64,000 bases of DNA. Source: Nanobdellota archaeon. GTDB lineage: Archaea; Nanobdellota; Nanobdellia; Pacearchaeales; GW2011-AR1. This document shows positions 10,061 to 61,010 of the stretch, one piece after another. Made by a program: the position numbers and the translations under genes. The notes beneath the pieces were generated by a model that searched no databases, had not been told where the DNA came from, and worked only from the letters and a program-made list of their open reading frames with translations. The stretch covers positions 2,521 to 66,520 of the forward strand of contig JBBSWO010000008.1 in NCBI GenBank assembly GCA_038046245.1, in the 5' to 3' direction. Numbering within the stretch: position 1 is the first letter of the stretch; every line of letters begins with the position of its first letter.

Positions 10061-10996
10061 ATGACCGATTTAAGTTTATCCATGAGTCCGAAATTGGCAC
10101 AGAGAATGAATTTACAGCAGATTATAGCTTTAAATCAATTTGTCTCTCTTCCTCCAACCGCAGTGGGACATGTTTTGGATGATATAGCGAGAGACCCGCA
10201 AAAATTCGAAGACATGTTTGTAGAGAGTAATGCCTCTGGAAAACCAGATGTTCAAGCTGTTTTTGGATCTTTGGTTACTTCTTCTCTTGGCTATTTGAAA
10301 AAAGGAAATTCTGGATTAATAATGGATCCTCCAAGCAAAGAAATAGCTGAAGCGGTTTCTAGTAAAACTATCGAAATCACTCCAGAGGTGACCTATGTTG
10401 GAAGAGAAAAAGACAAGCCTCTTATTATGTTTTCAAATTTTATCTCAGAGCAGCCAAGACTTTCTGTGCAGCAGATTAAAATCCCTGATCATTTTAAGAA
10501 CGCCAAGAAACTTTATGCTCACATTAGCAGTCAAAGAGAGTATGTTAATTCAAAATTAAGGGAATCTTATGTAGCCATAGGAGAACAGCAAAGAGAATTT
10601 CTCGCCAGAAGTGAACCAACAACTTTAAACGTTTTTTGTCAAAAAGATTTAGCCGATAAAGTTGGAGTTTCTACTTCACTTGTTTCAAGATTAATGAAGA
10701 ATAAGTCTGCTTTAGTTCAGCCCGCGAGCTCTAATTCTCCGTACGTTTTGGAAATTTCCCAGCTTATGCCGTCTAAAGAAGATTTGGGAAGGTTCTTAGT
10801 GGTTAGAGGAATAAACCAAATTTTAAGTGAAGAAGATCCTTCAAATCCTTTTTCTGACATGGAAATCAAGCAAAGATTGGGAATTAATTCAGCAAGAAGG
10901 ACAGTTTCAAAATACAGGTCAGAGGCAGGCATTCCTGAAGCTAGACTTAGAGTGAACTATTCTGGTGAACGTCAAATACCTTATTTCCTCAAGTAA
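10061..10996 (+). CDS. Sigma-54 (RpoN)-like protein: Region I plus DNA-binding domain, core-binding domain apparently absent
   Basis: RpoN box ARRTVSKYR (10892-10918) within EDPSNPFSD-EI...GIP; HTH DLADKVGVSTSLVSR; ITPEV..PRL and I-EQQ-EFL segments; Leu/Gln-rich Region I-like N-terminus; only 311 aa. Confidence 0.8.
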   Translation: MTDLSLSMSPKLAQRMNLQQIIALNQFVSLPPTAVGHVLDDIARDPQKFEDMFVESNASGKPDVQAVFGSLVTSSLGYLKKGNSGLIMDPPSKEIAEAVSSKTIEITPEVTYVGREKDKPLIMFSNFISEQPRLSVQQIKIPDHFKNAKKLYAHISSQREYVNSKLRESYVAIGEQQREFLARSEPTTLNVFCQKDLADKVGVSTSLVSRLMKNKSALVQPASSNSPYVLEISQLMPSKEDLGRFLVVRGINQILSEEDPSNPFSDMEIKQRLGINSARRTVSKYRSEAGIPEARLRVNYSGERQIPYFLK

Positions 10997-11095
10997 TTTT
11001 CTTATACTGGTTAAAATTCTTCTCCAAAAATTTATAAACATCGAAGGATTTTGTAAGTAAAATGGGTGATTATTCTAATTTGTCGGGGTTTTTAG

Positions 11096-12610
11096 ATGAG
11101 GTTTAATATTCTTATAGGTGGGAAAGCAGGGCAGGGAATAAACAAAACTTCTCAGATTGTTTCTCAGACTTTGACTAATCACGGATATTTTGTCTTTAAC
11201 TACCGAGATTATCCTTCAGTTATAAGAGGGGATCACAATTTTAATGTTCTTTCCATTTCAGATGAACCAATTGAAAGTCATGAGTCAATGCTTGATGGAA
11301 TTATTGCTATGGATGAAAACACAATAAGAGTCCATAAATCTGAATTGAAAAAAGACGGATTTATCATTAGTTATAAAGATTTTTTAAAATATGGGATAAA
11401 CCTAAATATTGCCCAGACTGGGGCCTTGATGAAGGTCCTTGGCATAGACAAAAAAATTCTCGTTGATGAAGTAGAAAAAACTTTGAACAACAAAGAGTCA
11501 ATAGACGCCCTTGAAGTTGGTTTTAGTTCTGAGAAACAAAAATATCATCTGAAGAATATTAAGAAAAAAATATCTGTTATGACTGGAAATGAGGCCGTCG
11601 CTCAAGGCGCAATAAAATCTAAAATAGATTTGTATTTTGCATATCCAATGACTCCCACAACAAACGCTTTGCATGAGTTAGCTTCAAGACAAGTAGAAAA
11701 TAATTATGTCGTTTTCCAGCCAGAAGGAGAGATTTCTGTTGCGAATATGGCTTTGGGAGCAAGTTTTGCAGGAGCAAAAGTTATGATAGGAAGTAGCGGT
11801 GGGGGTTATGATTTAATGACTGAAGCAATGAGTTTTCAAGGAATGTCTGAATTGCCATTAGTTGTTTATCTTGGCTCTAGAGGTGGTCCGTCAACGGGCC
11901 TACCTACATACACAATGCAAAATGATTTGGATTTAGCTTTAAGATCTGGCCATGGAGAATTTCCGAGGATTGTAATTGCTCCAGGAAATCCCGTAGACGC
12001 AATTGAAAAAACCAACGAAGCTTTTTATCTCTCTCAAAAATTTAATTGTCTGTCTATAATTCTTTCCGATAAACATCTTGCAGAATCAGAATTTTCTTCA
12101 GATGTTGCACCTAAAAAACCTCTGCAGATAACATTAAACAGAAAAATTCCTGGAAAAGATATTGTGAAAGCAAACAGTTATGAGCACGATGAAAACGGAA
12201 TTACTGTTGAAGATGCTGAAAATACAGTTAAGAACGCAGATAGTAGATTAAAAAAATATGAAGCTATGAAAAAAGAATGTAAAAAATTCGAAATGATAAA
12301 AATTCATGGAAACAAAAACAGTAAAAACCTTATTATTGGCTGGGGTTCAACAAGGGGGGCAATTCTTGATGCAATAAAAGGACTTGACTTTAAATTTTTG
12401 CAGGTCATATACATGAAACCCTTGTCGGATGAAATAAAAAAAGAAATCCAGAAAGCAAAAAAAGTTATTTTGATTGAACAAAATGTGACAGGTCAGCTTG
12501 GAAGATTGATAAGAGAAAAAACTGGAATAAAAATTGAAAAAAGAATTCTGAAATATGACGGCAGGCCGTTTTTTTCGGATGAATTAAGGAAGGAGTTGTT
12601 GAAAAAATGA
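11096..12610 (+). CDS. korA: 2-oxoacid:ferredoxin oxidoreductase alpha subunit (gamma-alpha fusion)
   Basis: GGKAGQG, YPS-IRG, GNEA, AYPMTP, Q-EGE, R-GPSTGLPT, GHGEFP. Confidence 0.92.
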   Translation: MRFNILIGGKAGQGINKTSQIVSQTLTNHGYFVFNYRDYPSVIRGDHNFNVLSISDEPIESHESMLDGIIAMDENTIRVHKSELKKDGFIISYKDFLKYGINLNIAQTGALMKVLGIDKKILVDEVEKTLNNKESIDALEVGFSSEKQKYHLKNIKKKISVMTGNEAVAQGAIKSKIDLYFAYPMTPTTNALHELASRQVENNYVVFQPEGEISVANMALGASFAGAKVMIGSSGGGYDLMTEAMSFQGMSELPLVVYLGSRGGPSTGLPTYTMQNDLDLALRSGHGEFPRIVIAPGNPVDAIEKTNEAFYLSQKFNCLSIILSDKHLAESEFSSDVAPKKPLQITLNRKIPGKDIVKANSYEHDENGITVEDAENTVKNADSRLKKYEAMKKECKKFEMIKIHGNKNSKNLIIGWGSTRGAILDAIKGLDFKFLQVIYMKPLSDEIKKEIQKAKKVILIEQNVTGQLGRLIREKTGIKIEKRILKYDGRPFFSDELRKELLKK

Positions 12611-16243: not shown

Positions 16244-16244
16244 G

Positions 16245-18895: not shown

Positions 18896-18910
18896 GAAAA
18901 TTATTCTTTT

Positions 18911-19252: not shown

Positions 19253-19267
19253 TTTAAAAATAAAAAA

Positions 19268-20452
19268 TTAAAATTTAATGCTTGCTCCAGCATAAATTTC
19301 AGAACTTGTTTCTCCTGTTCTGAAGTCATGTTTTGCTTTGACATCTAAGTCAAAAGGAGTGCCAGGTATTGTTGTGTAAATATCTACAGCCCCTGTTGGA
19401 GTCCAGATTCTTTTTTCTTTGTCGTACTTAAAATCTGTTTTTATTCCAGCACCTAAGCTTGGAGTCCACCTATGCCAGTAGGTGCTGTTTACATCAACTT
19501 TTTTAGGAGTATTTTCCCAAGCCAAAGATATTGCGCTATGCCCAGTTTTTCCATCAATTTTGAACAAATCAGGAGCAATCCATCCCCATGCGCAGTTATC
19601 AGTCACTCCTCTGAAGTCTGGTTCTGTGAAATATTCTCCAGCGACATCAAAGAAACCTACCCCCATTCCAGTTCCAGCTGGAACAATAAGCATTTTTCCG
19701 CTTTGCTCTTTGTTTTTAAGATCAATATTTGTAAAGTGGTAAGCTCCCCATCCTTCACCATCTAATCCAACTATGTTAAACAGTTTATCGTTTGCTGTCT
19801 GCCCTCCAAAACTTACGTAACCTAAAATATCTTTACTGAGGGGCACACTAGCTCCAAAATAACCACTGAGATTATTGTGTTTTCCAAAGTCGGTTAAGCT
19901 TGCATTAAGAGTCATGTTTTCAAGGCTAAGTTTTCCTCCAATCATTCCTGCAGATAAACCATTGCTAACAATTCCTGCTCTTAAGAAGTTTTTACCTAAA
20001 CTATATCTGGCTATTCCAGTATGTGTTTTTTCTTTATCTGGTTCATTTGTATTGTAAGATGTTTCAAGCTCAAGTTTTCCGAATGTTTTACCTGTTTGTA
20101 AAGATGTTCTAAAAGCATTTAACTCGTCTTCATCTCTATCATCCTGAGCGATGAATCTGATTCCCAATGGACTATAAGTTGCATCGACTATTCCACTGAC
20201 CCCTTCTGAAAGAACAATTCCAGAATAAACTGAAACGTTTTTCTCTTGGGCTTTTTCTTGAGCCATTGTCCCTAAAGGTAGAGTTCCTAGTGTTAAGGCT
20301 GTGAGACCGTATACTAACGGTCTTCTTACCTTGCTCTTAATTTGCTCAACAAGAGTTGGATCAACTTCCTTTCTTAAAGCTGTAGGAAGGTACAATTCTT
20401 TACTTTTGCTGAATTCAAATCCTTCTCCTTGATGAGTTATTGTTTTTGTCAT
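19268..20452 (-). CDS. Secreted beta-barrel (outer-membrane-protein-like) protein
   Basis: Internal signal peptide RRPLVYGLTALTLGTLPLGTMA-QE; many alternating-polarity Gly/aromatic-rich strands; C-terminus EIYAGASIKF. Confidence 0.6.
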   Translation of the reverse strand: MTKTITHQGEGFEFSKSKELYLPTALRKEVDPTLVEQIKSKVRRPLVYGLTALTLGTLPLGTMAQEKAQEKNVSVYSGIVLSEGVSGIVDATYSPLGIRFIAQDDRDEDELNAFRTSLQTGKTFGKLELETSYNTNEPDKEKTHTGIARYSLGKNFLRAGIVSNGLSAGMIGGKLSLENMTLNASLTDFGKHNNLSGYFGASVPLSKDILGYVSFGGQTANDKLFNIVGLDGEGWGAYHFTNIDLKNKEQSGKMLIVPAGTGMGVGFFDVAGEYFTEPDFRGVTDNCAWGWIAPDLFKIDGKTGHSAISLAWENTPKKVDVNSTYWHRWTPSLGAGIKTDFKYDKEKRIWTPTGAVDIYTTIPGTPFDLDVKAKHDFRTGETSSEIYAGASIKF

Positions 20453-20566
20453 TGTAAAGGTGTAAAAAATATATATCTCTTAAACTTTATTATTAAACTT
20501 TATATATTAGTATAAATCTATATATATTTTAGAAAGGTTTATATAATAATTAATCTTACTACCGAT

Positions 20567-21460
20567 ATGAACAGAAAGCTTGTAAAACAAGGGACAGCAA
20601 CGTTGATGATTAGTCTGCCTTCTAAATGGCTTAAAGATCATTCTTTGGATAAGGGGGATAATATTGACTTGGAACAACTGGAAGATAATTTAGTTATCTC
20701 ACCAGCTAAGCTAGGCAGAAAAATGGAGACAGAAATCACGCTTAGAGATTTAAATGAGTCCTCTATAAGGACGCTCATAACAAACACTTACAGAAAAGGC
20801 TATGACAAGATAACTGTAAATTTTGACACTCAACACCAATTCCAAATTCTTGAAGATGTTATAAGAAAAAAGTTAATTGGTTTTGACATTACAAAAAAAG
20901 AAGCAAAAAAATGCTTTGTAGAAAACATAACAGAACCTTCTTTTGATCAGTTTGAAAACATACTGGGTAAAGTTTTCTTAAATATTTCTAGCTTATTTGA
21001 AATAACAAGAGCAAGATTGAATAATGATAAAACAGATGAAGATTTTGAGATTATAGAAGAAAAAATAATGCAATATGATAATTTTTGCAGGAGAGTTATT
21101 TCTAAAGGCCATTTGATAAAAGAAAGAAAAGAATTCTTTTGGTCTTTTTTACATTTAGTGGATCACGGCCAAAGAGAATTATATCATTTGAACAGGGCAA
21201 TGACGCGGCCTCCCAAAATATTAAATGAAACATTAAATGACGCTGAAAAAATGTTTGAGCTCGCTAAAAAGTCTTACCTGGAAAAAGATCTTAAATCGCT
21301 GTCTGAAATGCACGCTTTAGATAAGAAAGCTTTTTATGAAAGAGGATACAAAACACTTGAAAAATTAAAGGGTAAAGAAGTTATTCTTGGTTATCATCTA
21401 ATGGCTTGCCTAAGAAAGTTCTTCCAGACTAATTCGCCTTTGAGCGGTTTGTTACTTTAA
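20567..21460 (+). CDS. AbrB-domain / PhoU-family phosphate uptake regulator
   Basis: RKLVKQG-ATLMISLPSKW..L-KGD AbrB N-terminus, Y-KGYD-I, helical PhoU-like C-terminus. Confidence 0.8.
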   Translation: MNRKLVKQGTATLMISLPSKWLKDHSLDKGDNIDLEQLEDNLVISPAKLGRKMETEITLRDLNESSIRTLITNTYRKGYDKITVNFDTQHQFQILEDVIRKKLIGFDITKKEAKKCFVENITEPSFDQFENILGKVFLNISSLFEITRARLNNDKTDEDFEIIEEKIMQYDNFCRRVISKGHLIKERKEFFWSFLHLVDHGQRELYHLNRAMTRPPKILNETLNDAEKMFELAKKSYLEKDLKSLSEMHALDKKAFYERGYKTLEKLKGKEVILGYHLMACLRKFFQTNSPLSGLLL

Positions 21461-34832: not shown

Positions 34833-34870
34833 GCACAATCAAAGATATTTTTCTTTAAAAACTCTTTCTT

Positions 34871-42254: not shown

Positions 42255-42308
42255 TTGAATAATTTCCAGTAATTTCTAATGAATCGAAATACTTTATTTG
42301 CTTTCATA

Positions 42309-43007: not shown

Positions 43008-43009
43008 TT

Positions 43010-43861: not shown

Positions 43862-43868
43862 TAGGTAA

Positions 43869-45212: not shown

Positions 45213-45391
45213 TCTAATATGCTCTCTATTTTATTTTGCACTTCAAGAATAAACTTTTTCAATTTGTCGAACTCTCCAAAATTCTGGCTTTTGTAGGCAT
45301 ATTCTAGCCTAGAAATCGCTTTTTCAAGAGAACTACTCAACTGATTCAAAAATTCTATATCCTCTTTGTTTACCATTGTAATAACAGCCAA
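45209..45391 (-). CDS. Small hypothetical helical protein in the pilus operon
   Basis: Fills the gap between the ATPase and platform genes; ATGA overlap. Confidence 0.6.
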   Translation of the reverse strand: MAVITMVNKEDIEFLNQLSSSLEKAISRLEYAYKSQNFGEFDKLKKFILEVQNKIESILE

Positions 45392-45415
45392 TATTATTTA
45401 TTAAATCTTTCCAAG

Positions 45416-46981: not shown

Positions 46982-46993
46982 GGTTTTCCTCTT

Positions 46994-47542: not shown

Positions 47543-47595
47543 CTTTTTAATTATAAAGAGAAGAAAATAACTTATTTAAATCTTTCAAAAAGTTC

Positions 47596-48099
47596 TCAGC
47601 AACTTCCGATATTTTGTATTGTGCTTGAAGCATCACACTGCTTCCCATTTATCTTAGGAGCAACCTGAACCCTATCAGGAAAACTTGTCGATGCAAATCC
47701 TGCCCCAGTATAGTCATATCTGTAAGCTACTCCGGAATTTTTTGTAGGAAGCACAACAACATTCGCTCCAGTATAATTTTGTAAGTATTGTACCGTCGAC
47801 GGTGTGTTCAAAATTTTAAAACTTTTTGTTTGGCCGCTTGAGGAGACTCCAAAAGTCGCTTCATCCACATCTGCATCCTTTATTTCCAAAGAAATGATCA
47901 ACTCATGGCTTGTAGCATTATAGCAAGTATATGTTTCATCCAACTTCACTTTGTCAAACGCATTAAAACAACTTTGGCTCTGATCCAGATTGTCTTTTGT
48001 TATTTTTGTAACGACACTCCAGACAATTCCCGCCAAAACCACAGTAAGAAGAACGATAAGTAAAGTTGCCACAACAGTTGAAAGTCCGAGCTTGTTCAT
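47596..48099 (-). CDS. Archaeal pilin (start reassigned to MNKLG)
   Basis: NKLG/LSTVVATLLIVLLTV class III signal; Cys pairs. Confidence 0.8.
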   Translation of the reverse strand: MNKLGLSTVVATLLIVLLTVVLAGIVWSVVTKITKDNLDQSQSCFNAFDKVKLDETYTCYNATSHELIISLEIKDADVDEATFGVSSSGQTKSFKILNTPSTVQYLQNYTGANVVVLPTKNSGVAYRYDYTGAGFASTSFPDRVQVAPKINGKQCDASSTIQNIGSC

Positions 48100-48100
48100 T

Positions 48101-48589
48101 TTAGGCAACAACAACCTCTTGACCGAATTGTTTTTCATCGCAAACGTGTGTTCTTTCTCCTTTATCAGATTCTCCAAGCAAGACTGGAACAACGACGAGA
48201 CTATCGGCTCCAGAAATTTCTGCACTCAAGTCTTGGGATATAAAACTTCCTCCCTGAAGAAGTCCAGAATCTTTCCATCCAGAACTAGGAATGTCATTTC
48301 TCAAATCATACGTCTGGAAACCACGATTTTTCCCGACTTTCAAAACAATTCCATAGATTGGTATATTCCCTTCGTTGACTATCAACAACTGATTGTTGAC
48401 ATATTCTGCCCTGAAGCTCACATCTCCACAAACCAGCTCGACGTTCTCTCCTAATTTCATTATTGTCTCTTTTCCAATCTGCCTGAACCATATGAACACA
48501 ATTAAAGCTATGACCACAGTCATCGCAACAAGCAAAACAGTCGCTATTACTGGAGAAACACCGAACCTCTTTTTATTCTTGTCTAGCAT
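48101..48589 (-). CDS. Archaeal pilin (DUF1628-type N-terminus)
   Basis: KKRFG/VSPVIATVLLVAMTV. Confidence 0.85.
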   Translation of the reverse strand: MLDKNKKRFGVSPVIATVLLVAMTVVIALIVFIWFRQIGKETIMKLGENVELVCGDVSFRAEYVNNQLLIVNEGNIPIYGIVLKVGKNRGFQTYDLRNDIPSSGWKDSGLLQGGSFISQDLSAEISGADSLVVVPVLLGESDKGERTHVCDEKQFGQEVVVA

Positions 48590-48621
48590 TGTTTTATTAA
48601 GACTTTTTTCTTTTTAAATTT

Positions 48622-49161
48622 TTATGAACACACTATTTTCTCTTTTATCTTGTATTGGTTACCGCAACTTGCAAATCTTGCCTTTCCTTTATAATCTTCA
48701 TATCTGGCAGGGCTTATTTCAACAAAATATACTCTTCCCACTCCAGCCAAATTATACTGGTGTGTAGTCTGAACCCCTGGCGGAAAACTGTTGTTATTGT
48801 CTTTGTTAAATATGATGCTTCCAAAATTCTTGAATCCATCTGCACTTTGTAAAATATTATTATAAAGATTTATCGTTGCTAAACTTTGATTTTGACTCGA
48901 ATCGTTAGAGGCATAGATATAATACCCTCCTAAATTAAATCTTCCATTGTTCAACAATGTCAAATTCAACGAGTTTCCTGCGCAGCTGTAGCTTTTAACG
49001 ATCAATGACGTTCCATCCTGGCATTCGAGCTGGTCTTGGGGCACATAGGATTTCATCCAATAATACAACACTCCTCCCATGATAACGGCCATGCTTATTA
49101 ACAAGACATATCCAATCATTACACTTACTCCTAGCTTGTTTTTTTTAATTTCTCGCAACAT
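48622..49161 (-). CDS. Archaeal pilin
   Basis: KNKLG/VSVMIGYVLLIS; L-NNGRFN motif. Confidence 0.8.
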   Translation of the reverse strand: MLREIKKNKLGVSVMIGYVLLISMAVIMGGVLYYWMKSYVPQDQLECQDGTSLIVKSYSCAGNSLNLTLLNNGRFNLGGYYIYASNDSSQNQSLATINLYNNILQSADGFKNFGSIIFNKDNNNSFPPGVQTTHQYNLAGVGRVYFVEISPARYEDYKGKARFASCGNQYKIKEKIVCS

Positions 49162-49651
49162 ATTTTTCACCATTTAAAGTTTGGGTCATGACAAAATAAA
49201 AATTTTCAGAGGGATATACCAAAAAATTGTAATCAATCCCATTTAAAGGCAATGTTAAATTGCCTCCCCCAGTTTGATAATTGCTTATTATCGAATAATT
49301 TACATTTTCCTGCATTTCCGTTGTGTTGTACCTAAAAACTTCTAGATTGTTTATAAAGGTAGTAACTGCTCCGACGGTGTAGTTTCCTGTTATGTATACT
49401 ATATCAATGTCCTTGCCGGCATAATCTGAGAAATTTTTTGTAAACTCTTTTATTTTTTTATCGTTGTTTGCAATGCTATAATCTACAACTTTTTGTCCTT
49501 CAATTTTCAGCTGGTCTGAGAGTTCGTAAACCCTTACCTGCTCTTTTTTTTTGGAGGAATTTGAAATGAGAAAAAATCCAATTATCAATGATATGATTAC
49601 TATTGCTGCAATAAGATAGAACTGGCCTCTTTTGTTCAACCTCTTTAACAT
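49145..49651 (-). CDS. Pilin-like protein
   Basis: NKRG/QFYLIAAIVII. Confidence 0.75.
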   Translation of the reverse strand: MLKRLNKRGQFYLIAAIVIISLIIGFFLISNSSKKKEQVRVYELSDQLKIEGQKVVDYSIANNDKKIKEFTKNFSDYAGKDIDIVYITGNYTVGAVTTFINNLEVFRYNTTEMQENVNYSIISNYQTGGGNLTLPLNGIDYNFLVYPSENFYFVMTQTLNGEKYVARN

Positions 49652-49690: not shown

Positions 49691-52600
49691 TTAGACAATA
49701 GTTGTTTTTTTAGTCGTAGTAGTTGTTTGTGGTGTTGCAGCTTGCATTGTTATCTTTGTGTTCTTATAACTTGCTCCTTCTTCAAGAGTAAATTTAAGTG
49801 AGGATGTATCAAATCCATTTGTTCCGGGACCGACTCTTAAATTTACTATTGTGCCATCTCCCCTAGGAATAACTGCAGAGCCATCTAATTTGTATATTCC
49901 AATTATATCTTTATTGAAAGTTACACTAAGCGAATTCAATCTTGATGTTGAAGCAACTCCCAACACTTTCATCTTGGTTACATCATAAGAAATTTTGAGT
50001 CTTACTCCTGAAAGATCAACTGGAGTATTGAGATTTATTGGAACTAATTTCTCTGTGTTTGTTCCAGTTGCTGATCCTAAAGAAACAAAAGCTGTTGAGG
50101 CAGAATATCCTGCATAGGTCTGCTGATAGTTGCAAGTTAAGGGAGTGAATGAAATGTAAAGATAATTAATCATTGCTGAAAGATCTGAAATATCAACATT
50201 TCCATCTGGGGATCCATCAACATTTCCAACAGACATTGGTGCCTTAAATGGTGTAAATGAAATATATAAGTAGTCTATCATTGCTGAAAGATCTGAAATA
50301 TCTACATTGCCATCACTGTCAACATCTCCACATAAGAATTTAATCTGAGTTTTACCGCAATCATAACATCCTGTATGTTTTGCATTAAATCCTATCATTG
50401 GAGAGGTAATTTTTGTATTTGATAAATATGGGATGTTTGTGTTTACTGCAAGAACCTGGGTGCCAAAATTGGAACCTTCATGAAGCACCATGTTGTAGCT
50501 GAAAATTGTGGTTAAAATATCTAATTTTCCATCTTTGTCAACATCTCCTAGTGCATCTCCTTGAAAAGGCATGTTAATATGCATACTACTTAATTCAGGG
50601 TAGTCAAAAATAGAGATTGATTGTTCAGGATCATTTGTTCTTAAATTTTTATAGGCTATTTTATTACTCCCTGGGCCTCTCATGAATAAGAAAGTGTTAT
50701 TCTCAGTTTCATATACTGGTTTTGATATTATTGTATTTCCTGCGCCTAAGGCTTGACTGGAAGTATAATTTCCTATCGAAAATCCATAAGTGTCATAAAA
50801 GAAACTTGTCAAAGTTCTTTTTGCGAACAATGCAACTTCTAATTCAGAATCATTGTCGAGTTGCATAGGAATAGGATAGCTACCTTCATCAGGACGCGGG
50901 ACTATTATTGGCCAGCCAGTTAATTCATTTCCCAAATAATCATAAACATGCATGTGTGCGTATGCTGGAGTTTCTTCAACAAAAATTATTTCACGATATC
51001 CATCTTTATTTAAATCTGCAAGTGTTATTCTAGTGAAACTAATAAAATTTGAGACAACGAGGATCGGAAATCCTTGTTTAATGTTTCCATTTCCATCCCA
51101 AGCAAATAACTGTAGTTGACTTTGATTAGATGGATTTTTTGCAAGCACAATAACTTCAGGCTTGCTGTCATTATCAATATCTCCTGTTGAGGGAGGTGTT
51201 TTTGTAATAATTGATTGCCAACCACCCTGCAATTCAGATCCATCATTTTTGTAGACAGAAATTGGCATAACCTCTCTATGGCTGTAAATTATTTCTTCTC
51301 GACCATCCTGATCAATATCTTCTAATACTGGATAGTTATAAATGCCAGAAATCATCTCCCATTCAAGATTTTTTGGCCAGCCATTAACAGGCAAACCATT
51401 CTTTTTAAAAACATACAACATAGATTCACTACCAAAACCAATTAAGCTTGTTGATGAATAAACAACGTCTAAAACTCCATCTCCATCAACATCTCCTATT
51501 GCAGGAGTTGTTCCACCAGCAGCTACAGTTTTTTGAGGCCATCCAGACAAGACATTTCCTTTATTATCCCAAACATATAATGAAGAGTCTGGACTTCCAG
51601 GGCTTCCAGCAATTATTTCATTTTTTCCGTCATTGTCAAGATCTGCATACACTGGAGAAAATGCCTGGTAAAGAGCGTCATTTGTCATTTTCTGTGGCCA
51701 ACCTTCTTTCCAATTGCTATTTCTTTTAAATATAACTCTCAAATCTTGAGTGTATCTTCCAATAACATCATAAACTGTTAACCTAATTGATATTACTGAT
51801 GTAGTAATTTGGTCAAGGTCAATAGAACCCAAAACACCATTTATTTTTTGAGTGTTAACAGATGTAATAGTTATCCAGCTAGAAGGATTAAGACCTATTC
51901 CATAGTCTAAAACATAATGGTCAAAATTATTGCTTTGTGCTGTTCCTTTTATAGCAACAACACCAGATAAAAAAAGAGAGCTTGAAGTTTCAAAACTTGC
52001 TGTTGGATAAGGAGTTGGAGAATTTACTGCGGAGTAAACATTTATTTCTCCTGCTCCTTGAATAAGAGGAGACAATCCAAATGATGTTGCAGTTCCTTTT
52101 AATGTATTTTTTATTTCTTGAGGCGTCCAGCTCGGATGAGCTTGTTTTATTAAAGCCACTGCTCCAGCAACATGTGGTGTAGCCATGCTTGTTCCTGAAA
52201 TTGAAACATGTTTGTCCTCTAAACAAACAGATCCAGGCAGCCAGCTATCATATCTTGCAGCACATATATTGACTCCTGGTGCAACAACATCAGGTTTTAC
52301 ATTTCCTGTTGGAGTTGGTCCGATTGAGCTGAAAGTTCCAATATTATCTTTACAATATTTGTCTGACAAAGAGAGTGTGCAATTCTCCCACCTGTAATTA
52401 GAACATGTTCCTAAAAATTTCCATTGAGTTTCATTTCCAGTAAAATTTTCTGTTATAAACACATTAAATTTATAATAAAAACTTTGTACGCAAGATCTTG
52501 AAGGATAACATTCTAATGTATCTTTTGTTGAGAATACAAGAGAAGTAAGATTATTGTTTTTCGGCAAACTTATCACTGCCCAACCGCCGAATTTTGTTCC

Positions 52601-53941
52601 CGATTTTGTGTCAACACATAAATTTTGATTGTTTTGATCAGATATTATATTATTTCCAGAAGGGCAACGTGAGGAATTTTTTAATCCAATTACAGCATAA
52701 GCAGGAGTGTTGTCAACAAGATTTAATGGATTTAAAACATACTCTGAATCGTTTAACATTCCAAAAGTAGATTCTGTGACAACTGGATCGTTTATGTTTG
52801 TTTCAATATCAGCACGTCCTACTAAATATGCTTCTGTGTAATATCTTGAATCTTTTGTTTTACAATCTGCTCCAACCCCAATAATATCTTTTGCATTGCC
52901 TGGGCTGCCAATAGTGAAGTAGCCATCAGGCCTTCCTGAATTTCCCACAGCAACAACAACATTAACTCCAGCTAAAACTGCATTATCTGATGCAACTGAC
53001 ATAGGATCAGAGGGATCACCCCAAGTGCCGAGGCTCATACTGATTATATCAATATGATCAGAAGTATCTCCATCTTGATTTGGATCCACAGAATGTTCTA
53101 TCGCTGCTATTACATTTGATAAAGGTCCTCCTCCATTTTTGTCTACAGCTTTATAAGCATAAATTGTAGCCTCTGGGGCAACACCATTCAAAATTCCTTT
53201 TCCTGCAGCTGTGGCTGCAACATGTGTTCCATGACCCATGTCATCCATAGGATCATTGTCATTATTATAAAAATCATAACCTCCAACAATTTTACAACCT
53301 GGCCCAAAACAGCCTCCAAGATCAGGTTGGGTATAATCTACTCCAGTGTCAATAATTCCAATTTTAATTCCCTTTCCAGTTAAATTTGTTCCATTAACTT
53401 GCATATTCCAGACTTTGTCAGCTTGTATTTGGGGAACAGAATCGTAAAGAAATATTTGTACTTCCTTATTAAAATAAACTTCTTTTACATTTGGTAAAGA
53501 TTTTATCTTTGAGATATCTTTTTCTGAAACTCCTGAAACTGCAAATCCGTTAAAAACATTTTGATATTTTGAATTAATTTTTATTTTAGGAGAAATTTGT
53601 TTTATTTGATCTTCGACAATTTTTTGCTTGTCAACAAGATTTTGTTTGTAACTCTTTGCACTTAAAGCTTTTGCATTAGAATTTGAAGATAGCTTTGCTG
53701 TATACTGTGAAACAGGATCATCTTTCAATTGAATTATATAACTATTAAGTTTTGGTTGTGCTTGTGTGGAAGTTGTCGTTGCTGTTTTTGCATTGGAAGT
53801 ATCTGCGCCTAAAATCTTCTTTACAGCATTTCCAGTAGAAAATTTTTGATCAATAAAACCCAATGCAAGAATTTCAAAAACCAAAATTAATGACAGTATA
53901 AGAATTAATGTTTTGTTAAACTTCAAACCCCTTTTCTTCAT
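49691..53941 (-). CDS. Secreted S8 subtilase with I9 prodomain, FG-GAP/GWP repeats, dockerin and cohesin-like domains
   Basis: Catalytic IIDTGVD, HGTHVA, SGTSMATPHVAG; repeated DLDNDG..EII / GWP; duplicated DGNVDISDLSAMI-YL; C-terminal VPINL..DLSGVRLKISYD; start moved to MKKRG. Confidence 0.88.
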   Translation of the reverse strand: MKKRGLKFNKTLILILSLILVFEILALGFIDQKFSTGNAVKKILGADTSNAKTATTTSTQAQPKLNSYIIQLKDDPVSQYTAKLSSNSNAKALSAKSYKQNLVDKQKIVEDQIKQISPKIKINSKYQNVFNGFAVSGVSEKDISKIKSLPNVKEVYFNKEVQIFLYDSVPQIQADKVWNMQVNGTNLTGKGIKIGIIDTGVDYTQPDLGGCFGPGCKIVGGYDFYNNDNDPMDDMGHGTHVAATAAGKGILNGVAPEATIYAYKAVDKNGGGPLSNVIAAIEHSVDPNQDGDTSDHIDIISMSLGTWGDPSDPMSVASDNAVLAGVNVVVAVGNSGRPDGYFTIGSPGNAKDIIGVGADCKTKDSRYYTEAYLVGRADIETNINDPVVTESTFGMLNDSEYVLNPLNLVDNTPAYAVIGLKNSSRCPSGNNIISDQNNQNLCVDTKSGTKFGGWAVISLPKNNNLTSLVFSTKDTLECYPSRSCVQSFYYKFNVFITENFTGNETQWKFLGTCSNYRWENCTLSLSDKYCKDNIGTFSSIGPTPTGNVKPDVVAPGVNICAARYDSWLPGSVCLEDKHVSISGTSMATPHVAGAVALIKQAHPSWTPQEIKNTLKGTATSFGLSPLIQGAGEINVYSAVNSPTPYPTASFETSSSLFLSGVVAIKGTAQSNNFDHYVLDYGIGLNPSSWITITSVNTQKINGVLGSIDLDQITTSVISIRLTVYDVIGRYTQDLRVIFKRNSNWKEGWPQKMTNDALYQAFSPVYADLDNDGKNEIIAGSPGSPDSSLYVWDNKGNVLSGWPQKTVAAGGTTPAIGDVDGDGVLDVVYSSTSLIGFGSESMLYVFKKNGLPVNGWPKNLEWEMISGIYNYPVLEDIDQDGREEIIYSHREVMPISVYKNDGSELQGGWQSIITKTPPSTGDIDNDSKPEVIVLAKNPSNQSQLQLFAWDGNGNIKQGFPILVVSNFISFTRITLADLNKDGYREIIFVEETPAYAHMHVYDYLGNELTGWPIIVPRPDEGSYPIPMQLDNDSELEVALFAKRTLTSFFYDTYGFSIGNYTSSQALGAGNTIISKPVYETENNTFLFMRGPGSNKIAYKNLRTNDPEQSISIFDYPELSSMHINMPFQGDALGDVDKDGKLDILTTIFSYNMVLHEGSNFGTQVLAVNTNIPYLSNTKITSPMIGFNAKHTGCYDCGKTQIKFLCGDVDSDGNVDISDLSAMIDYLYISFTPFKAPMSVGNVDGSPDGNVDISDLSAMINYLYISFTPLTCNYQQTYAGYSASTAFVSLGSATGTNTEKLVPINLNTPVDLSGVRLKISYDVTKMKVLGVASTSRLNSLSVTFNKDIIGIYKLDGSAVIPRGDGTIVNLRVGPGTNGFDTSSLKFTLEEGASYKNTKITMQAATPQTTTTTKKTTIV
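50169..50302. repeat. Two identical 26-bp direct repeats, 108 bp apart, encoding the dockerin duplication
   Basis: atcattgctgaaagatctgaaatatc at 50169-50194 and 50277-50302. Confidence 0.85.
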
Positions 53942-53975
53942 TGATAATAAAAACCAAATCACTATAAAAATATTT

Positions 53976-54233
53976 GTAGACTCAGAGGGTTGCTTCCGAA
54001 AAACCAAAAAGCTACCTTTATTCTTCCTCGGTTTTGCGACCTGCTAAGCACCTTGACAAATGTTTAGGGCTGCTCCGATCAAGGCCTGACCCGTTTCGCA
54101 TATGCAAGATCAAAACAGACAAAACGTCAACGTCCAAATAAAGACTTCTTGACATTTCAGTCACGCCCCTCCTTGCAGTCTGCCTAAAGCCCGTTTGCAA
54201 ATAGCGGAGGGCTAATCCGCTGACCTAGTCTAC
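53976..54233 (-). ncRNA. ffs: Signal recognition particle (7S) RNA, divergent
   Basis: GC-richer intergenic island; terminal helix GTAGACT/AGTCTAC; Alu-like hairpin AGCGGA-TTAGCCC-TCCGCT whose loop can pair with downstream GGGCT; helix-8 SRP54 motif GGGT-CAGG-CC..GG-AGCA-GCCC; TATA-like cttaaata about 24 nt upstream. Confidence 0.8.
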
Positions 54234-54281: not shown

Positions 54282-55001
54282 TTAATTAGGACGCAGTAAG
54301 AAATCTAACGATTCTGGTGTATTATATTCTTTAGGATCTTGTCCTTTGATGAATACTCTTGCACCATTATTCCCAACAACAATCATTTTGTCTCCTGCAA
54401 CTCTTAGCATTGCTCCTTCTCTCAGCGCAACTACTTTATCATCGTTAAAAGCATGATATTCTTTTATCCTTGTTTCTCTAGTTTCGCCCATATGCGTTGA
54501 GTTTGGATCAGAATCTAAATAATGTGGATTAATAACAAACGGAACTAAACCCAAAGCATCAAAACTTGAAGGAGAAGCGATGGGCATATCGTTTGTAGTC
54601 ATTATTGTTTTTCCAGCAACATTAGATCCAGCGCTGGTGCCGATATAGGGTATTCCTGTTTTTACCTTGTCTCTTATACTAGGCATTATTCCCATTTCAT
54701 AAATAGATTTTAACAAAACAAAAGTATTTCCTCCACCCACAAATATTGCTTCAGCGTTTTCCACGGCTTTTCTCGGACTGTTAAATTCATGTATTCCATT
54801 GAGGCCAAATTCCATTTTATGAAACCTTTGACGAGCAACATTTGTGTACTCCTCAAAATTTATTCCTCCAGGTCTTGCATATGGAATAAAGAGAGCATTC
54901 ATTCTCCCACTTAAAATATCACGTATTTGTCCTTCACAATGGTCTAAATATCCAGTTCCGTGTGTCTTAGAACTACTTATCAAAAGCAAGTCTCTTGTCA
55001 T
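54282..55001 (-). CDS. pepE: Dipeptidase E (peptidase S51)
   Basis: FIPYA, FVGGGNTF, G-SAGSNV, TTNDMP, INPHY, HMGETRETRI-E. Confidence 0.93.
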   Translation of the reverse strand: MTRDLLLISSSKTHGTGYLDHCEGQIRDILSGRMNALFIPYARPGGINFEEYTNVARQRFHKMEFGLNGIHEFNSPRKAVENAEAIFVGGGNTFVLLKSIYEMGIMPSIRDKVKTGIPYIGTSAGSNVAGKTIMTTNDMPIASPSSFDALGLVPFVINPHYLDSDPNSTHMGETRETRIKEYHAFNDDKVVALREGAMLRVAGDKMIVVGNNGARVFIKGQDPKEYNTPESLDFLLRPN

Positions 55002-55779: not shown

Positions 55780-58700
55780 TTAGTTTGGTGCAGGTAATTC
55801 ACACATTAGAGAACTTTTTATCCAGTAGTTTAAATCCTGAACTCCCTCTCCAATTGCCTGTACTGCTTCGCTTGTTAAGTTCAAATGAAGATTGAATTGG
55901 GCACGTCCGTTTATATCTATGCACATGTCTTCAAGAGATAAATCTCCAGCGTCTGTTTTGAACCAGCATGCACCATTTACCCATTCTACATCAGGGCCTA
56001 CACAGGATCCTTCATCAGTTCCAATAATGTGTTTCATTCCAACAAATGTCCAGTCCATATCTTGAGGATCAGATGTTGTAGCATTAAGCATTGCAGGAGT
56101 CACAATGTTTCCAAGTTTATCCATCCAGAATTCTATTGTGTTTCCTCCTCTCATACATAAGTTGAAAGTAAAGTCACAGCTTCCTCCGTTTACTGGATCA
56201 ACAAGGCATGTTGAAGGGCTTATGTACTCAACATTCACGACTTCAGGTAAATGTTCATTCACTGAGGCACTGTTCTCATTTCCTAAGTTGTCTTTAGCGG
56301 TAATTATCAAAGTGTATTCTCCTGCTGGGAGATCTTTTTCCATTAATCCTTCATATGTGAATGTGTTTCCGTATTGTTGTTTCTTCAACTGAACTGTCTT
56401 TACAACTATACCACTGGAGTTCTTTAATTCAGCAACAACACTTGAATCATTTATTCCAGATTTTGCGTCGCTAATACTTACAACTATTGACTGCACACAC
56501 TTGTTGACGTCACTAGCTTCACTTTGTGTTGGGTTTCTCACTATTATTGTTGGAGGAACATCATCTACATTATCCCATTCAATCTGTGCTTCGTTCTGGT
56601 TTCCAAGAGCATCTTTACAATACCATTCTAAATTGTGAAGTGAGTCTTCTTTGAAGTTGAAAGTATATTTTCCTTCTTCAGTTGCAACGCAATAATATCC
56701 GTTTTCAGTTAATTGATTGTCTCCAGCATATTCTTGAGTTATGTATCCAGATGGTCCGTCTATAGGATGCCATGATACTCTGAAACATAATTGTTCATGA
56801 TCAACAGGATGAGGTTGAACATCATCACAGCTTAATGTTACAGGCGTTTGACTTGTAACAAACCAAGCTTGCCATTCACTTTCTTCTCCACACTTTCCAG
56901 TTTCATCATCACATTCAAACTTAGGTTCTCCAATCAATTTGTCTGTTTTAGGAGGTTCATTATCCACAAAAACACATTGTTTCTTTACGGCTTCTGTTTT
57001 TTCAACATTGTCAACAGCATAAAACTCAATCAAGTGACAAGAATCTTCAGGTATCTTAAAGTCAACCGAGTTTCCCTCATGGGATGTCCATTCTCCACTG
57101 CCTTCAAAATCACATTTTGCTACACATGCTTCATCAGATACATCTAAAGGAGTTACTCTATAATTAATTTCACTGACTCCTGAAGGGTGTGGTTCTTGAT
57201 CTATTGCAGCTAAATTTATATTTGTTGCAGAAGTAATCCAGTCATATACTTGATCTGTCACAAAAGGAGTTCCGTAAGTTTTTGTGGTAAGAGGCTTGGT
57301 TTTATCAACTATAAATGTCTCAAAATCTCTAACTTCATTTCCTAACGCATCCTTACATTCTATTAATAAATTATGTCTTGATTCTTCTGGGAAATGTATT
57401 ACAAAATTATCTCCTAGCCCCTCTTCTCCAAGAATAGATTCCCCATCATTAACAGTATAGCTCCATTTGCATTCAATGCCTCCAACAGGGTGTGGTTGTG
57501 AGTCAGTAACCTTAACATGAATTTCTGTAACACCATCTAGATAGCAAACATCATTACTATCAGGTTGAGGTGGGCATTGCCCATAGCTTGGTCCGACAAT
57601 TTCTTTTTCTATTGTAGGGGATTTAGAATCAACTACATCAATTTCAGATTGTGTTTCTTCAGTGTTTCCTAGTGCATCAGCACAATAATATTCTAACTGG
57701 TGACATGAATCTTGTGGGAAATAAATAGGTTCTTCGTAGCTAAACCATTCAGTCCATTCAGATTGATCCAAATTAGCACAGTTGTCATTAAATCTATACC
57801 TATAATGTAAGGAAACTTGGTCAATTGGGTGTGGACTTTGATCTGCACAACTCAATTCTATTGGCGTTCCTCCAGAAATGAAATAATCACATTGTAAATC
57901 TTGAGGTTCTGGAGGTAATCCCCCAAATCCACATTGGCCTTGAGGAATAGCGTATGCATTTATTATTCTATCATAAGCATCTTGACTCCATATTGCTCCA
58001 ACACCCTGACTTGCAAAAGTAAGGTCATCACATTCCATATCTTCAAGTCTTTCTGGGAAAGTTGCAAATAAATTTATGCTTGTAAAGTCTTTTGTTGCTT
58101 CATAAATTTGACTTCCGCCATTGTTTGCAAGATATAATTTTGAACCTCCAACAGCAATTCCTGAATTTCCATATCCTCCAAGATTTACTGGGAAACTTTC
58201 TATAAATGTGCCATCAGTTTTATAGTGTGATACCGGTGATGAAGCGTCTGGGCTTGTCCATATTGTGTCATCAGATCCATCGTATGCTAATCCGTCAAAA
58301 CAACCACCAGAAACAAACATATCTTGGCTTGATCCATCAGATAAGTCCACTAATATTACATTATTAAAATTAGAACATACCCAAAGCTTATTTCTGGTTG
58401 CATCCCATGCAGCTGCACCAAGACTAGTTTTTCCTGTGACACTAATCGTATTTACAAGACTTCCATCTGAAGGGCTTAGTAAATCAAGTTTGTTATTGTA
58501 ATAACAAGTCATAATAAGATTTGTTCCATCAAAAGCAAGACCTACGTTGATCCCACATTGTGATGGATTTGCTCCAGTGATTTGTCTTAAATTAGTACCT
58601 GGAGAAGGAACATTTATGTCATTAGGAACAAACTGCTCGTCATTTCCTCCATCGCTTGCTTCACATACTATTTTAGGATTCCCAACTTCCTTCGTAGTTA

Positions 58701-60120
58701 TAGGAGCTTTACTGTCAACAATGTCTAATTCATAATGATGTGTTTCTACATTATCGCATCCATCACTTGCCCAATATTCAATTAAGTGGCAGGAGTCTTG
58801 AGTTAAACTTAACTTTACTGCTTCACTTGGTTCACCTGTTCCAGAAGATTGAAGCGTCCATTCAGGAGCTTCAGATGTGCAATCTTGACTATACCATATA
58901 TTATAGTGTACAATAGGATTTCCAGAAATTTCGTGATCTGGTGTATCTGGATCAGTTGCATTAAGTGTTATTTCTGTTCCAGGCTTTACATAATAGCAAC
59001 CATCTGTTAGTGTTTTACCGTCTGCTGATTCGAAGTTGCATGTCTTAGAAACATCTCCAGCAAAACTAATTGTTTTCGTGGTTACAGGAGGTAAGGTATC
59101 TTTTATGAAAGAAATTAAAGGATTGGAAGGTAGGCCAAGTTTACCCCAGTTTTCTTGGGTGTCTTTTCCATGAAGTTCAACGTAGTGTGTTCCTTCACTT
59201 AATTGACTCAAATCAATTGTTGTTTGAACATCTTCACAATTTTCATCTCTATAACTTCCGTCAGTGGCAGCCATAACTATTCCTCCCCAATTTACTGGGC
59301 TGTGATCATCAATGAAATACTCAGCTAATTGTATGGCTGATTGTTTATCACAAACATTTGCAGTTAACAAAGGATTATTTCCACAGACAAGTAATTCACT
59401 AGGATTACATTGTTCGTTAAGTGCAATTCCTCTTTGTGTGTCTGTATTTTGTCCAGGCAGGCAAGTTGGATATTCTGGAGGTAAGCAGTCGACATTTATC
59501 TGAATGACTTTACAAGAAACTTCCCAGTTTCCTTCAGAATCTTGTCCTCTGACATAAACATTAATACTCCCATCAACAACATTCACTTCATCTTTCATAA
59601 CTGCTTCAATCAAAGAGTCATAATTTCCATCCGTTGCAGAAAGCGTTTTTCCTGTTCCAGGAGTTTCGCAGCCTGTCGTAAAATATTCAGAAGTTAATAT
59701 GAGAGAACATTGATCGGTTTCTGTTGCCTCAATTTTTATTTGGCAGGCATTGATAACCTTTGTCGCAACCAAATTGCTTGTTACGGGGGGAGTATTGTCT
59801 GGTAATTTGTTGGTAACGCAAGATTTGGTTTCTGTATTACAAACCCCAACAGTGCATGTATTGTCTCCAGATTGAGTGCAGTCAGTCGTAGAAGAAGTAG
59901 GTTGACATGATCCTTCAACACATATATTAGTGTTATGAATTAAATTATTTCCTTCACAAACATAATTTTCTAGCCCGCAATTTGGGTCATTGATACAAGC
60001 TGTAAGACAATCAGAGTCTGTAGAACAAGTCCAAGCAGTAACAGAGCCCACAGAATTAATAGTGACGGTCAAAACAGCTAGTGCAAACAAAAATACAATG
60101 AGCACCTTTTTTTCAACCAT
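55780..60120 (-). CDS. Large acidic Cys-rich secreted protein with tandem Ig-like repeats and an inserted beta-propeller-like region
   Basis: Signal peptide; repeats ending D-S-C/L-H-x-L/I-E-Y/F/W..D-LGN-E with PHP motifs; GLAFDG/GLAYDG/GIAVGG blades. Confidence 0.8.
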   Translation of the reverse strand: MVEKKVLIVFLFALAVLTVTINSVGSVTAWTCSTDSDCLTACINDPNCGLENYVCEGNNLIHNTNICVEGSCQPTSSTTDCTQSGDNTCTVGVCNTETKSCVTNKLPDNTPPVTSNLVATKVINACQIKIEATETDQCSLILTSEYFTTGCETPGTGKTLSATDGNYDSLIEAVMKDEVNVVDGSINVYVRGQDSEGNWEVSCKVIQINVDCLPPEYPTCLPGQNTDTQRGIALNEQCNPSELLVCGNNPLLTANVCDKQSAIQLAEYFIDDHSPVNWGGIVMAATDGSYRDENCEDVQTTIDLSQLSEGTHYVELHGKDTQENWGKLGLPSNPLISFIKDTLPPVTTKTISFAGDVSKTCNFESADGKTLTDGCYYVKPGTEITLNATDPDTPDHEISGNPIVHYNIWYSQDCTSEAPEWTLQSSGTGEPSEAVKLSLTQDSCHLIEYWASDGCDNVETHHYELDIVDSKAPITTKEVGNPKIVCEASDGGNDEQFVPNDINVPSPGTNLRQITGANPSQCGINVGLAFDGTNLIMTCYYNNKLDLLSPSDGSLVNTISVTGKTSLGAAAWDATRNKLWVCSNFNNVILVDLSDGSSQDMFVSGGCFDGLAYDGSDDTIWTSPDASSPVSHYKTDGTFIESFPVNLGGYGNSGIAVGGSKLYLANNGGSQIYEATKDFTSINLFATFPERLEDMECDDLTFASQGVGAIWSQDAYDRIINAYAIPQGQCGFGGLPPEPQDLQCDYFISGGTPIELSCADQSPHPIDQVSLHYRYRFNDNCANLDQSEWTEWFSYEEPIYFPQDSCHQLEYYCADALGNTEETQSEIDVVDSKSPTIEKEIVGPSYGQCPPQPDSNDVCYLDGVTEIHVKVTDSQPHPVGGIECKWSYTVNDGESILGEEGLGDNFVIHFPEESRHNLLIECKDALGNEVRDFETFIVDKTKPLTTKTYGTPFVTDQVYDWITSATNINLAAIDQEPHPSGVSEINYRVTPLDVSDEACVAKCDFEGSGEWTSHEGNSVDFKIPEDSCHLIEFYAVDNVEKTEAVKKQCVFVDNEPPKTDKLIGEPKFECDDETGKCGEESEWQAWFVTSQTPVTLSCDDVQPHPVDHEQLCFRVSWHPIDGPSGYITQEYAGDNQLTENGYYCVATEEGKYTFNFKEDSLHNLEWYCKDALGNQNEAQIEWDNVDDVPPTIIVRNPTQSEASDVNKCVQSIVVSISDAKSGINDSSVVAELKNSSGIVVKTVQLKKQQYGNTFTYEGLMEKDLPAGEYTLIITAKDNLGNENSASVNEHLPEVVNVEYISPSTCLVDPVNGGSCDFTFNLCMRGGNTIEFWMDKLGNIVTPAMLNATTSDPQDMDWTFVGMKHIIGTDEGSCVGPDVEWVNGACWFKTDAGDLSLEDMCIDINGRAQFNLHLNLTSEAVQAIGEGVQDLNYWIKSSLMCELPAPN

Positions 60121-60230
60121 TGATTTTCCAGAACTAAAGAGTATTTAAATATTTTTATCTTTTATAACATAATGAAAATTTTTGTCTCGAGTTTTTTATT
60201 ACTCTATCCTAGCAAAAGTTAATGAAAATT

Positions 60231-61010
60231 TCAATACCTTTTCCACAACACCAATTTTCCTTTGTCATCTCTTAAAAATAAGGTGTCTCCTGTTTTCGTC
60301 CAGACATAATCTTTGCCTTCCCAGTACAATATATTATTGGTGTCAGTTTTGTTTCCCACTTCAACAGCGACATCATTTTCCAACACAAAATTTGGAAAAG
60401 TGAAAACTTTTCTGCCCTCGTCCTTGATTTTCCATTCACTCATGTCACATTTGAATGAGCATTTATTAGAAAAAACAACTTTTTGTTCATCAACATTAAA
60501 TTCTTTTAGTTCTATGCAATTAGCGCAGACATCCTCAGATTTCTCGCACAAATTAATGCTTTTTGAGATGCATTCATTCCAAGCCTCCACAAAATCATTG
60601 TAATATTTGTCTTTTCCCTCGGGAAAATAAGGATTTGCAAATCCATTTTTAACAATTTCTAAATTTACATTTTCCCCATTAGCGAAAATATATCTAAGTT
60701 TTCTTCCATATAAATCAAGATTTTGTTTTCCGACTTCCATTTTTACAAATTGGCCCAGAGTCGTATTTTCTGTAAAATTCTTGGCCTGTGAGTAATATAA
60801 CTCGCCTTTTTCAGGGGTATTTATCCCAAGAAGCCTTACGTGAGAACCATTAACAACTATTGTATCTCCATCTATAACTCTCTCGGCAATTCCTACTTCA
60901 TAATTGGACAGCCAGTTTTTCAGCACTTTGTCAAGTATTGGATAATTTGCTCCAAACAGAAAAAGAATTAAGACTAAGAGCAGAAGTTTTTGTTTGTCTC
61001 TAGTTTTCAT
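60231..61010 (-). CDS. Membrane-anchored thermonuclease (SNase) with C-terminal lamin-tail-like domain
   Basis: RVIDGDT, VRLLGINTPE, DLYGR-LRY, N-N-EIV-NG-A; C-terminal W-IKD, VW-K-GD-FLRD-G-LV. Confidence 0.88.
   Translation of the reverse strand: MKTRDKQKLLLLVLILFLFGANYPILDKVLKNWLSNYEVGIAERVIDGDTIVVNGSHVRLLGINTPEKGELYYSQAKNFTENTTLGQFVKMEVGKQNLDLYGRKLRYIFANGENVNLEIVKNGFANPYFPEGKDKYYNDFVEAWNECISKSINLCEKSEDVCANCIELKEFNVDEQKVVFSNKCSFKCDMSEWKIKDEGRKVFTFPNFVLENDVAVEVGNKTDTNNILYWEGKDYVWTKTGDTLFLRDDKGKLVLWKRY

Follow-up and report, generated by a model that had tools for sequence, protein, structure and literature searches.

A recurring barrel-candidate, regulator and kinase cassette and a separate sigma-54-like protein in a Pacearchaeales genome

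In Bacillus, AbrB is a target of PrkC-type phosphorylation. The porins PhoE and OprP are under phosphate control, and non-cellulosomal cohesin-dockerin assemblies occur in Archaeoglobus and clostridia. Genes resembling parts of these systems and of bacterial sigma-54 (RpoN) lie in a stretch of 64,000 nucleotides, hereafter the window, from a Nanobdellota archaeon (GenBank assembly GCA_038046245.1, contig JBBSWO010000008.1, positions 2,521 to 66,520; contig C8 of genome G000 in our set). They comprise a three-gene cassette of a beta-barrel candidate, an AbrB-type regulator and a kinase, a sigma-54-like protein, and a secreted subtilase (Table 1). The window is probably an ordinary Pacearchaeales backbone with these three accessory units gained or lost separately.

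According to excerpts of the respective studies, the core-binding domain (CBD) is the main polymerase-binding domain of sigma-54, while Region I packs on the ELH too (PMC7057263), and activators hold the first 11–13 residues of Region I, mainly L or Q (PMC11839083). A 2025 survey, likewise consulted in excerpts, still holds that archaea have no sigma factors (PMC12316311), and sigma-70 in Woesearchaeota has already been published (PMC8204110, in part). The main-text passages of the latter mention neither sigma-54 nor the word 'porin'; its Supplementary Table 3 may already list the families described here as hypotheticals. Literature searches returned nothing on point for sigma-54 or RpoN in DPANN archaea or Woesearchaeota (most subscription papers lay outside the search) and, by title and abstract start, nothing for PhoU with AbrB and a pho box, for beta-barrels or an outer membrane in DPANN, or for DPANN cohesins and dockerins. 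The cassette and the CBD-less sigma-54 clade are real gene units of nanoarchaea, not found in the literature searched; the functions given below are predicted.

A three-gene cassette with a conserved intergenic element

Barrel candidate, regulator and kinase form a recurring three-gene cassette (19268–23833). The preliminary description of this DNA had barrel and kinase inserted singly; both travel with the regulator gene, which that description did not list. Among 300 genomes of the order, the kinase query matched 12 at E ≤ 1e-10: nine with full-length kinase-transmembrane proteins, two with short or contig-end sequences, and one (G093) not opened. Eight of the nine full-length relatives adjoin a cassette (G081, G134, G133, G156, G226, G123, G070 and G071), which places it in about 3% of the order's genomes. 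Gene order is as in the window, i.e. one or more barrel-like genes, the AbrB/PhoU-like gene diverging from them and the kinase converging on the latter, with a 134-aa frame interposed in G123. The insertion site in G081 and G134 is that of the window, the remaining cassettes are flanked by different genes, among them serS and rps19e, and the G071 carrier belongs to another family. The same-genus comparison genome G001 (98% complete) retains subtilase and pilus; barrel, regulator and kinase are missing together, and the sigma-54-like gene is missing too. As a small control, four other AbrB/PhoU copies (G045, G525, G217, G202) have no barrel-like neighbour.

Between the divergent promoters lies a conserved 46-bp element. 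With the G156 copy as seed, 36–42 bases matched in six other cassettes, compared with shuffle maxima of 30–33. A matrix trained without the source genome gave the window's copy 44.3 bits and the next best site in that genome 2.8; the element is thus present once, which argues against a wider regulon. The regulator is likewise single copy. Its PhoU likeness was seen in the G226 homologue only (TIGR02135, E 0.003, weak) and not in the window's regulator, and no pst neighbour was seen in the cassette loci.

The kinase has the kinase-transmembrane-ectodomain topology that led the preliminary description to a PknB architecture, and the likeness ends there: no Pfam family matched its C-terminal 422 residues at E ≤ 5, so PASTA repeats are lacking, and NF033483 scored 41 bits with a cut-off of 450. 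The HRD motif is present and DLxxA replaces DFG. Relatives carry two unrelated ectodomain types, neither of known family; a by-eye guess that the second is a dead transglycosylase found no support.

Thirteen proteins from the barrel slot were compared, 12 from cassettes and one from G217. They fall into several groups without alignment between them, except that groups II and III align, and a single barrel family across the cassettes was rejected; the barrel alignment A9 mixes unrelated groups, hence its blank PDB search says little. All 13 lack a transmembrane helix and contain 7–15% Gly and 9–12% aromatics, eight end in Phe, and in ten strand alternation exceeds the 95th percentile of 294 genome proteins. 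The slot operon holds three barrel-like genes in G226 (L114:3804-6233) and two in G123 (L115:2719-4517). A barrel-like pair of 232–236 aa resembles TorF/Gcw_chp porins by eye, with no Pfam match.

The window's own slot protein is likely a membrane barrel, judged from predicted structure and sequence features. It has an export signal (by hydropathy and eye), no transmembrane helix and a C-terminal beta-signal, and, one doubtful frame aside, is the only protein of the genome to combine a G-x-x-I-x-F end, an N-terminal hydrophobic stretch and the lack of a transmembrane helix. AlphaFold2 on three sequences gave 19 successive strands. Of the ten neighbours listed for its ESM Atlas model (TM-score 0.49–0.56), those whose aligned part belongs to a named family are an usher and a VDAC-type porin; by Atlas features, OmpG and Porin_4 clusters are among the neighbours (0.87). 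Foldseek ranked Occ/OprD porins first (best E 1.3e-3), and VIA gave outer-membrane barrels Z 8.2–8.4. Relatives are rare: two of 300 genomes, a single locus in a metagenome scan, and, in word-index searches with this and the sigma-54-like gene, only the queries themselves, to which a profile added one more. The first 40 codons add a long, charged segment ahead of the signal-like stretch, kept in the G217 barrel and missing in G081.

Several observations weigh against these readings. The barrel models are of low confidence (mean pLDDT 43.5; 31 from the single sequence), which leaves the preliminary description's barrel at probable, the Foldseek hit has a TM-score of about 0.23, the VIA alignments have an rmsd of 4–11 and Z-scores in a range that tool calls common, and the top VIA row is an unrelated non-barrel (Z 9.5) above the outer-membrane barrels. 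A crude strand count puts the protein 89th of 598, and it has no Pfam, NCBIfam or PDB sequence match. As to the cassette, the window's barrel group fails to align with the other slot occupants; the element was not matched in G081, G133 or at the lone G217 barrel; in G045 the regulator lies 4 kb away and the kinase has no barrel; in G217 a broken barrel stands alone, with neither regulator nor kinase; and kinase and regulator trees agree in part only. Single-protein searches also overlook remote relatives, in genomes that are themselves incomplete. The G217 locus (L013:1498-2685, L028), which lacks regulator, kinase and element, has an in-frame stop that recurs in a separate metagenome contig and is probably a decaying cassette.

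The linkage, the 46-bp element and the domain layout of the cassette are established. Going by this layout, the kinase would sense an outside cue and phosphorylate the regulator, which would bind the 46-bp element and switch the barrel on; the barrel would be a small-solute pore at the cell surface or contact site. The likeliest target, at less than even odds, would be the membrane of a contacted diderm bacterium; insertion into the archaeon's own envelope is almost as likely, and it is rather unlikely that the slot protein is not a membrane barrel at all.

The rival that survives best, improbable as we consider it, gives these archaea their own second lipid barrier on the outside, with the cassette as a nutrient-regulated porin system like PhoE/OprP and barrels inserted without BamA. 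The weak PhoU likeness would suit it, as would an operon of up to three barrel-like genes (G226) and a slot refilled by unrelated barrels, as expected of a cell's own uptake pores; several slot proteins moreover end in Phe plus a short tail, which is not a strict BAM signal. Against it stand the cassette's rarity and its absence from G001, the lack of any BamA/Omp85 match (PF01103, E ≤ 1) in the 88% complete source genome, a crude motif scan for phosphate transporters, in which PiT and NptA gave no match and the one ABC match resembles another family, and the single copy of the element.

A sigma-54-like protein without a core-binding domain

The sigma-54-like protein matches Sigma54_DBD (PF04552, the DNA-binding domain, DBD) at E 3e-16 and solved RpoN structures at E 6.5e-10, and no CBD (PF04963) match was obtained; the CBD-less RpoN of the preliminary description thus stands. 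A profile of seven relatives gave 150 best matches, 98 of them 240–360 aa long, from which eight were removed (apparent fragments of full-length RpoN, or N-terminus missing). All 90 remaining short proteins contain the DBD, and none has the CBD among the five best rows of each, versus 11 of 11 full-length controls, all of which possess AID, CBD and DBD. The family aligns with sigma-54 from the PDV hairpin through the RpoN box (profile-profile, 99.9%). Its Region I was detected by hhalign (87.9%, E 3.2e-6) and is too diverged for PF00309, which matched none among the rows shown. The spacing between Region I and the PDV hairpin has a median of 62 residues, compared with 219 in full-length proteins, and the L/Q content of the N-terminus is 0.33 (full-length 0.42, proteins of the source genome 0.13). 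The predicted fold superposes on sigma-54 with a TM-score of 0.61 over 232 residues. RpoN-box residues are kept in 85–94% of 104 short proteins at an overall identity of only about 25%; the ELH arginine column, invariant in sigma-54, varies (K 32%, I 21%, V 15%). Given the packing of Region I against the ELH (PMC7057263, in part), its retention may be structural.

In a FastTree reconstruction (138 rows, 185 columns) the 105 non-canonical rows formed a single clade (support 0.998). The outgroup consisted of the 33 best-scoring RpoN only and branches were long, therefore no donor is named. PF04552 was found in seven of 300 order genomes, two of the seven being short RpoN-domain-only frames, and in nine of 400 phylum genomes, all of one class (seven strong, one weak, one in an unpublished genome, G558, on which no other result depends); the clade occurs in about 2–3% of Nanoarchaeia genomes. 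Taxon labels were present in four of 30 clusters examined, all Nanoarchaeota or Woesearchaeota, with most members unlabelled. Six of eight named loci carry labels of Pacearchaeota/Woesearchaeota-type archaea, one is labelled 'Methanosarcinales' and one 'Paceibacterota', the neighbour genes of the last being 42–69% identical to genes of the source genome. In Elusimicrobiota and Chloroflexota the ESM Atlas has sigma-54 clusters of 325–387 aa with the DBD alone. The archaeal family may be related to these or derive from them, and a missing CBD may therefore be no archaeal peculiarity. G138 and G146 encode RpoN-box-only proteins of 139–166 aa, each 3' of a related repeat-rich gene (L009:1495-1995, L010:1255-1674).

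A viral origin was rejected: nine viral loci all encode full-length RpoN, and of five phage-collection matches two are annotated rpoN and the one inspected is a full-length gene of 443 aa. No neighbour gene recurs across 20 sigma-54-like loci, and the kinase, present at two, was rejected as a regular neighbour. A PF00158 search of ten genomes (nine carriers, 86–93% complete) found no GAFTGA activator; the matches reached 17–20 bits only, in frames that resemble MCM, CDC48 and RFC and lack the motif. In the source genome −24/−12 sites are not enriched (17, versus 9–21 in five Markov controls), nor are they in 745 upstream regions (three versus four in the control).

Such a sigma-54 derivative would still read DNA yet has lost its main polymerase anchor, which is why a blocker or decoy is proposed here and not a sigma factor. 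The chances are even that it acts in the archaeon itself, on altered sites; action in a bacterial partner is conceivable, while a mere relic seems improbable.

Backbone, subtilase and neighbouring genes

Table 1 Features of the window (positions in the window)
Feature	Position	Strand	Evidence
Candidate archaeal promoter 5' of the sigma-54-like gene, which we take to match the BRE/TATA consensus (predicted function)	10026..10039	+	read from sequence
Sigma-54-like protein, 311 aa: Region I, short linker, PDV hairpin, ELH-HTH, RpoN box, no CBD; independent accessory gene	10061..10996	+	
Exported beta-barrel candidate, 394 aa, signal-like N-terminus, C-terminal G-x-x-I-x-F; cassette gene 1	19268..20452	-	
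Candidate operator: AT-rich conserved element of 46 bp separating divergent promoters	20482..20527	.	above every shuffle in 7/9 cassettes
Cassette gene 2: regulator joining an AbrB/MazE-type DNA-binding domain to a helical domain with weak PhoU likeness	20567..21460	+	PF04014 E 1.6e-6
Hanks-type kinase, one transmembrane helix, ectodomain without known family; cassette gene 3	21452..23833	-	Pkinase E 6e-12
Pair of surface proteins anchored in the membrane (PKD domain; Cys-rich repeats)	32187..36841	-	
Backbone locus of an archaeal type IV pilus, with ATPase, two TadC-like genes and pilins	41805..49651	-	domain searches
Secreted subtilase: I9, S8, FG-GAP repeats, dockerin, weak cohesin-like tail; the genome has ten dockerin carriers, this one included	49691..54007	-	
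Dipeptidase PepE	54282..55001	-	NF003642 294 bits, cut-off 156
Large secreted Ig-like repeat protein	55780..60120	-	
Exported thermonuclease with lamin-tail domain (SNase-LTD)	60231..61010	-	PF00565 E 2e-13, PF00932 E 6e-9

The source genome (705 kb) is contained in groundwater metagenomes; its size, its gene content and the Pacearchaeota or Woesearchaeota labels on named relatives of its sigma-54-like gene are read here as pointing to Pacearchaeales. The window carries an archaeal backbone of exosome, proteasome, Mre11/Rad50, CCA enzyme, OapABC and the pilus locus, of which eight to nine genes are retained in G001 in unchanged order at 67–96% identity. Contigs from a second study span 8500–12392 and 17858–24036 without a single letter difference, hence the genes there are not mis-assembled; the odd genes are genuine, correctly assembled and set within a Pacearchaeales-type backbone. 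Their composition gives no sign of a shared donor (third-position G+C 0.20–0.29; genome 0.305 ± 0.044). Pilus, nuclease and PepE are present as first described. An orphan gene after rad50 (18287–18895) has a 30% identical homologue in the same place in G217, and a P-loop ATPase with weak Zot/nSTAND3 matches (5835–6509) sits inside the exosome-proteasome operon.

The dockerin/cohesin subtilase was likewise recovered: its dockerin is above cut-off (PF00404, E 2e-9) with duplicated Ca-binding loops, the cohesin-like tail weak and under cut-off (E 0.005–0.007). G001 has a 74% identical orthologue in the same place, and a query with the dockerin-cohesin tail found 15 of 300 genomes. A single cluster of the source genome has four genes that together encode six cohesins above cut-off, and the genome has ten dockerin matches, so the subtilase dockerin needs no bacterial partner; the enzyme would clip onto the cell's own cohesin scaffolds. 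That cluster comprises seven same-strand genes (C3:193503-206740, L104), including MopE-like repeats; its parts are a transmembrane-anchored two-cohesin protein, cohesin-plus-dockerin adaptors, one with a LamG lectin domain, and dockerin-only cargo.

Separate units, possible partners and comparison with known systems

The seven order genomes with a sigma-54 DBD overlap in no case with the kinase, the dockerin tail, the cassette or the barrel query (each 0/7). The power of this comparison is low, with expected overlaps below 0.4 and related genomes not independent; an obligate system would give most of the seven overlaps, however, so the result counts against one system. Profiles agreed: five barrel or kinase genomes, G001 being in the set checked, lacked a sigma-54-like gene, and four sigma-54-like genomes lacked the window's barrel group. 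Cassette and dockerin coincide in two of eight genomes, both nearest relatives. SLT domains occur in 125 of 301 order genomes and are tracked neither by the sigma-54-like gene (3/7) nor by the cassette (3/8); they are somewhat commoner with the dockerin tail (10/15, expected 6.2, related genomes again not independent).

That all these genes are drifting passengers of repeated gene transfer, the barrel-like proteins being soluble or surface beta-proteins, has a low probability: patchy presence, the in-frame stops of the G217 barrel, a split kinase in G105 and the low-confidence barrel models speak for it, whereas the upkeep of the non-coding element across genera and two families, of the RpoN-box residues in otherwise diverged proteins and of gene order at different sites speaks against it. 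Least of all survives the single dispersed toolkit of the preliminary description, with which the archaeon would attach to a diderm bacterium as host and manipulate it; this reading is unlikely and should be dropped: despite the missing BamA, the lack of a GAFTGA activator in all nine sigma-54-DBD genomes, −24/−12 sites not in excess, a secreted protein of 2392 aa with two lytic transglycosylase domains elsewhere in the source genome (C11:12144-19322, L105:145-7323), the link of barrel and kinase and the SLT-dockerin tendency, the proposed co-occurrence holds for barrel, regulator and kinase only, SLT follows neither of the other units, the cohesins are the archaeon's own, and the sigma-54-like protein lacks an export signal, with no route for its delivery identified. 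Its premise that the natural partners are bacterial therefore keeps some force for the barrel and the sigma-54 derivative and loses it for the dockerin.

For Pacearchaeales and Woesearchaeales, bacterial hosts have so far been suggested only: excerpts of the literature propose them from giant transglycosylases (PMC8204110), describe peptidoglycan hydrolases as prominent in Nanoarchaeota (PMC12352652) and, in 2026, still speak of 'potentially even bacterial hosts' (PMC13473441). One Nanobdellota is known to form a cytoplasmic bridge to its archaeal host, which makes protein delivery conceivable (PMC11420986, in part). We regard it as doubtful, yet worth stating, that some Pacearchaeales living on diderm bacteria put a contact-switched porin, bearing a bacterial-type assembly signal at its end, into the partner's outer membrane via the partner's BAM and that, independently of this, a sigma-54 blind to polymerase passes from some Nanoarchaeia into the partner, where it sits on −24/−12 promoters or sequesters activators. 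If true, these would be cross-domain effectors of archaea working inside bacteria. The barrel would be informative either way, as a pore in a bacterial partner or as a membrane barrel of an archaeon that has no BamA, and both units offer bench-testable handles on BAM assembly, binding of the 46-bp element and blocking of −24/−12 promoters.

Among known systems, bacterial sigma-54 (TIGR02395; PDB 5UI5, 7QV9) shares Region I, the part from PDV hairpin to RpoN box, the predicted fold and the L/Q-rich start with the archaeal protein, which in contrast lacks the CBD, is about 160 residues shorter, has a variable ELH arginine and comes from a genome in which no activator was found. Neisseria sigma-54 truncations lose the HTH instead, according to part of PMC6755734. 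The kinase resembles the receptor kinases PknB, PrkC and StkP in kinase-transmembrane-ectodomain topology and HRD motif, and it adjoins an AbrB-type regulator; it differs by the missing PASTA repeats, DLxxA for DFG and its ectodomains. The cohesin-dockerin cluster resembles non-cellulosomal assemblies in its anchored two-cohesin protein, adaptors and dockerin-only cargo, the pairs being predicted, although no glycoside hydrolase domains were seen in its seven proteins. Of the giant lytic-transglycosylase proteins of Pacearchaeota and Woesearchaeota (fam00969 in the accessible part of PMC8204110), the source genome has one, outside the window. Finally, the barrel candidate matches no family by sequence, and its producer is an archaeon without detected Omp85; in predicted fold, however, it shares with OprD/Occ, OmpG, maltoporin and VDAC a signal peptide, about 19 amphipathic strands, a long internal loop and a C-terminal Phe, and nearly all its top structural neighbours are porin/VDAC-type barrels.

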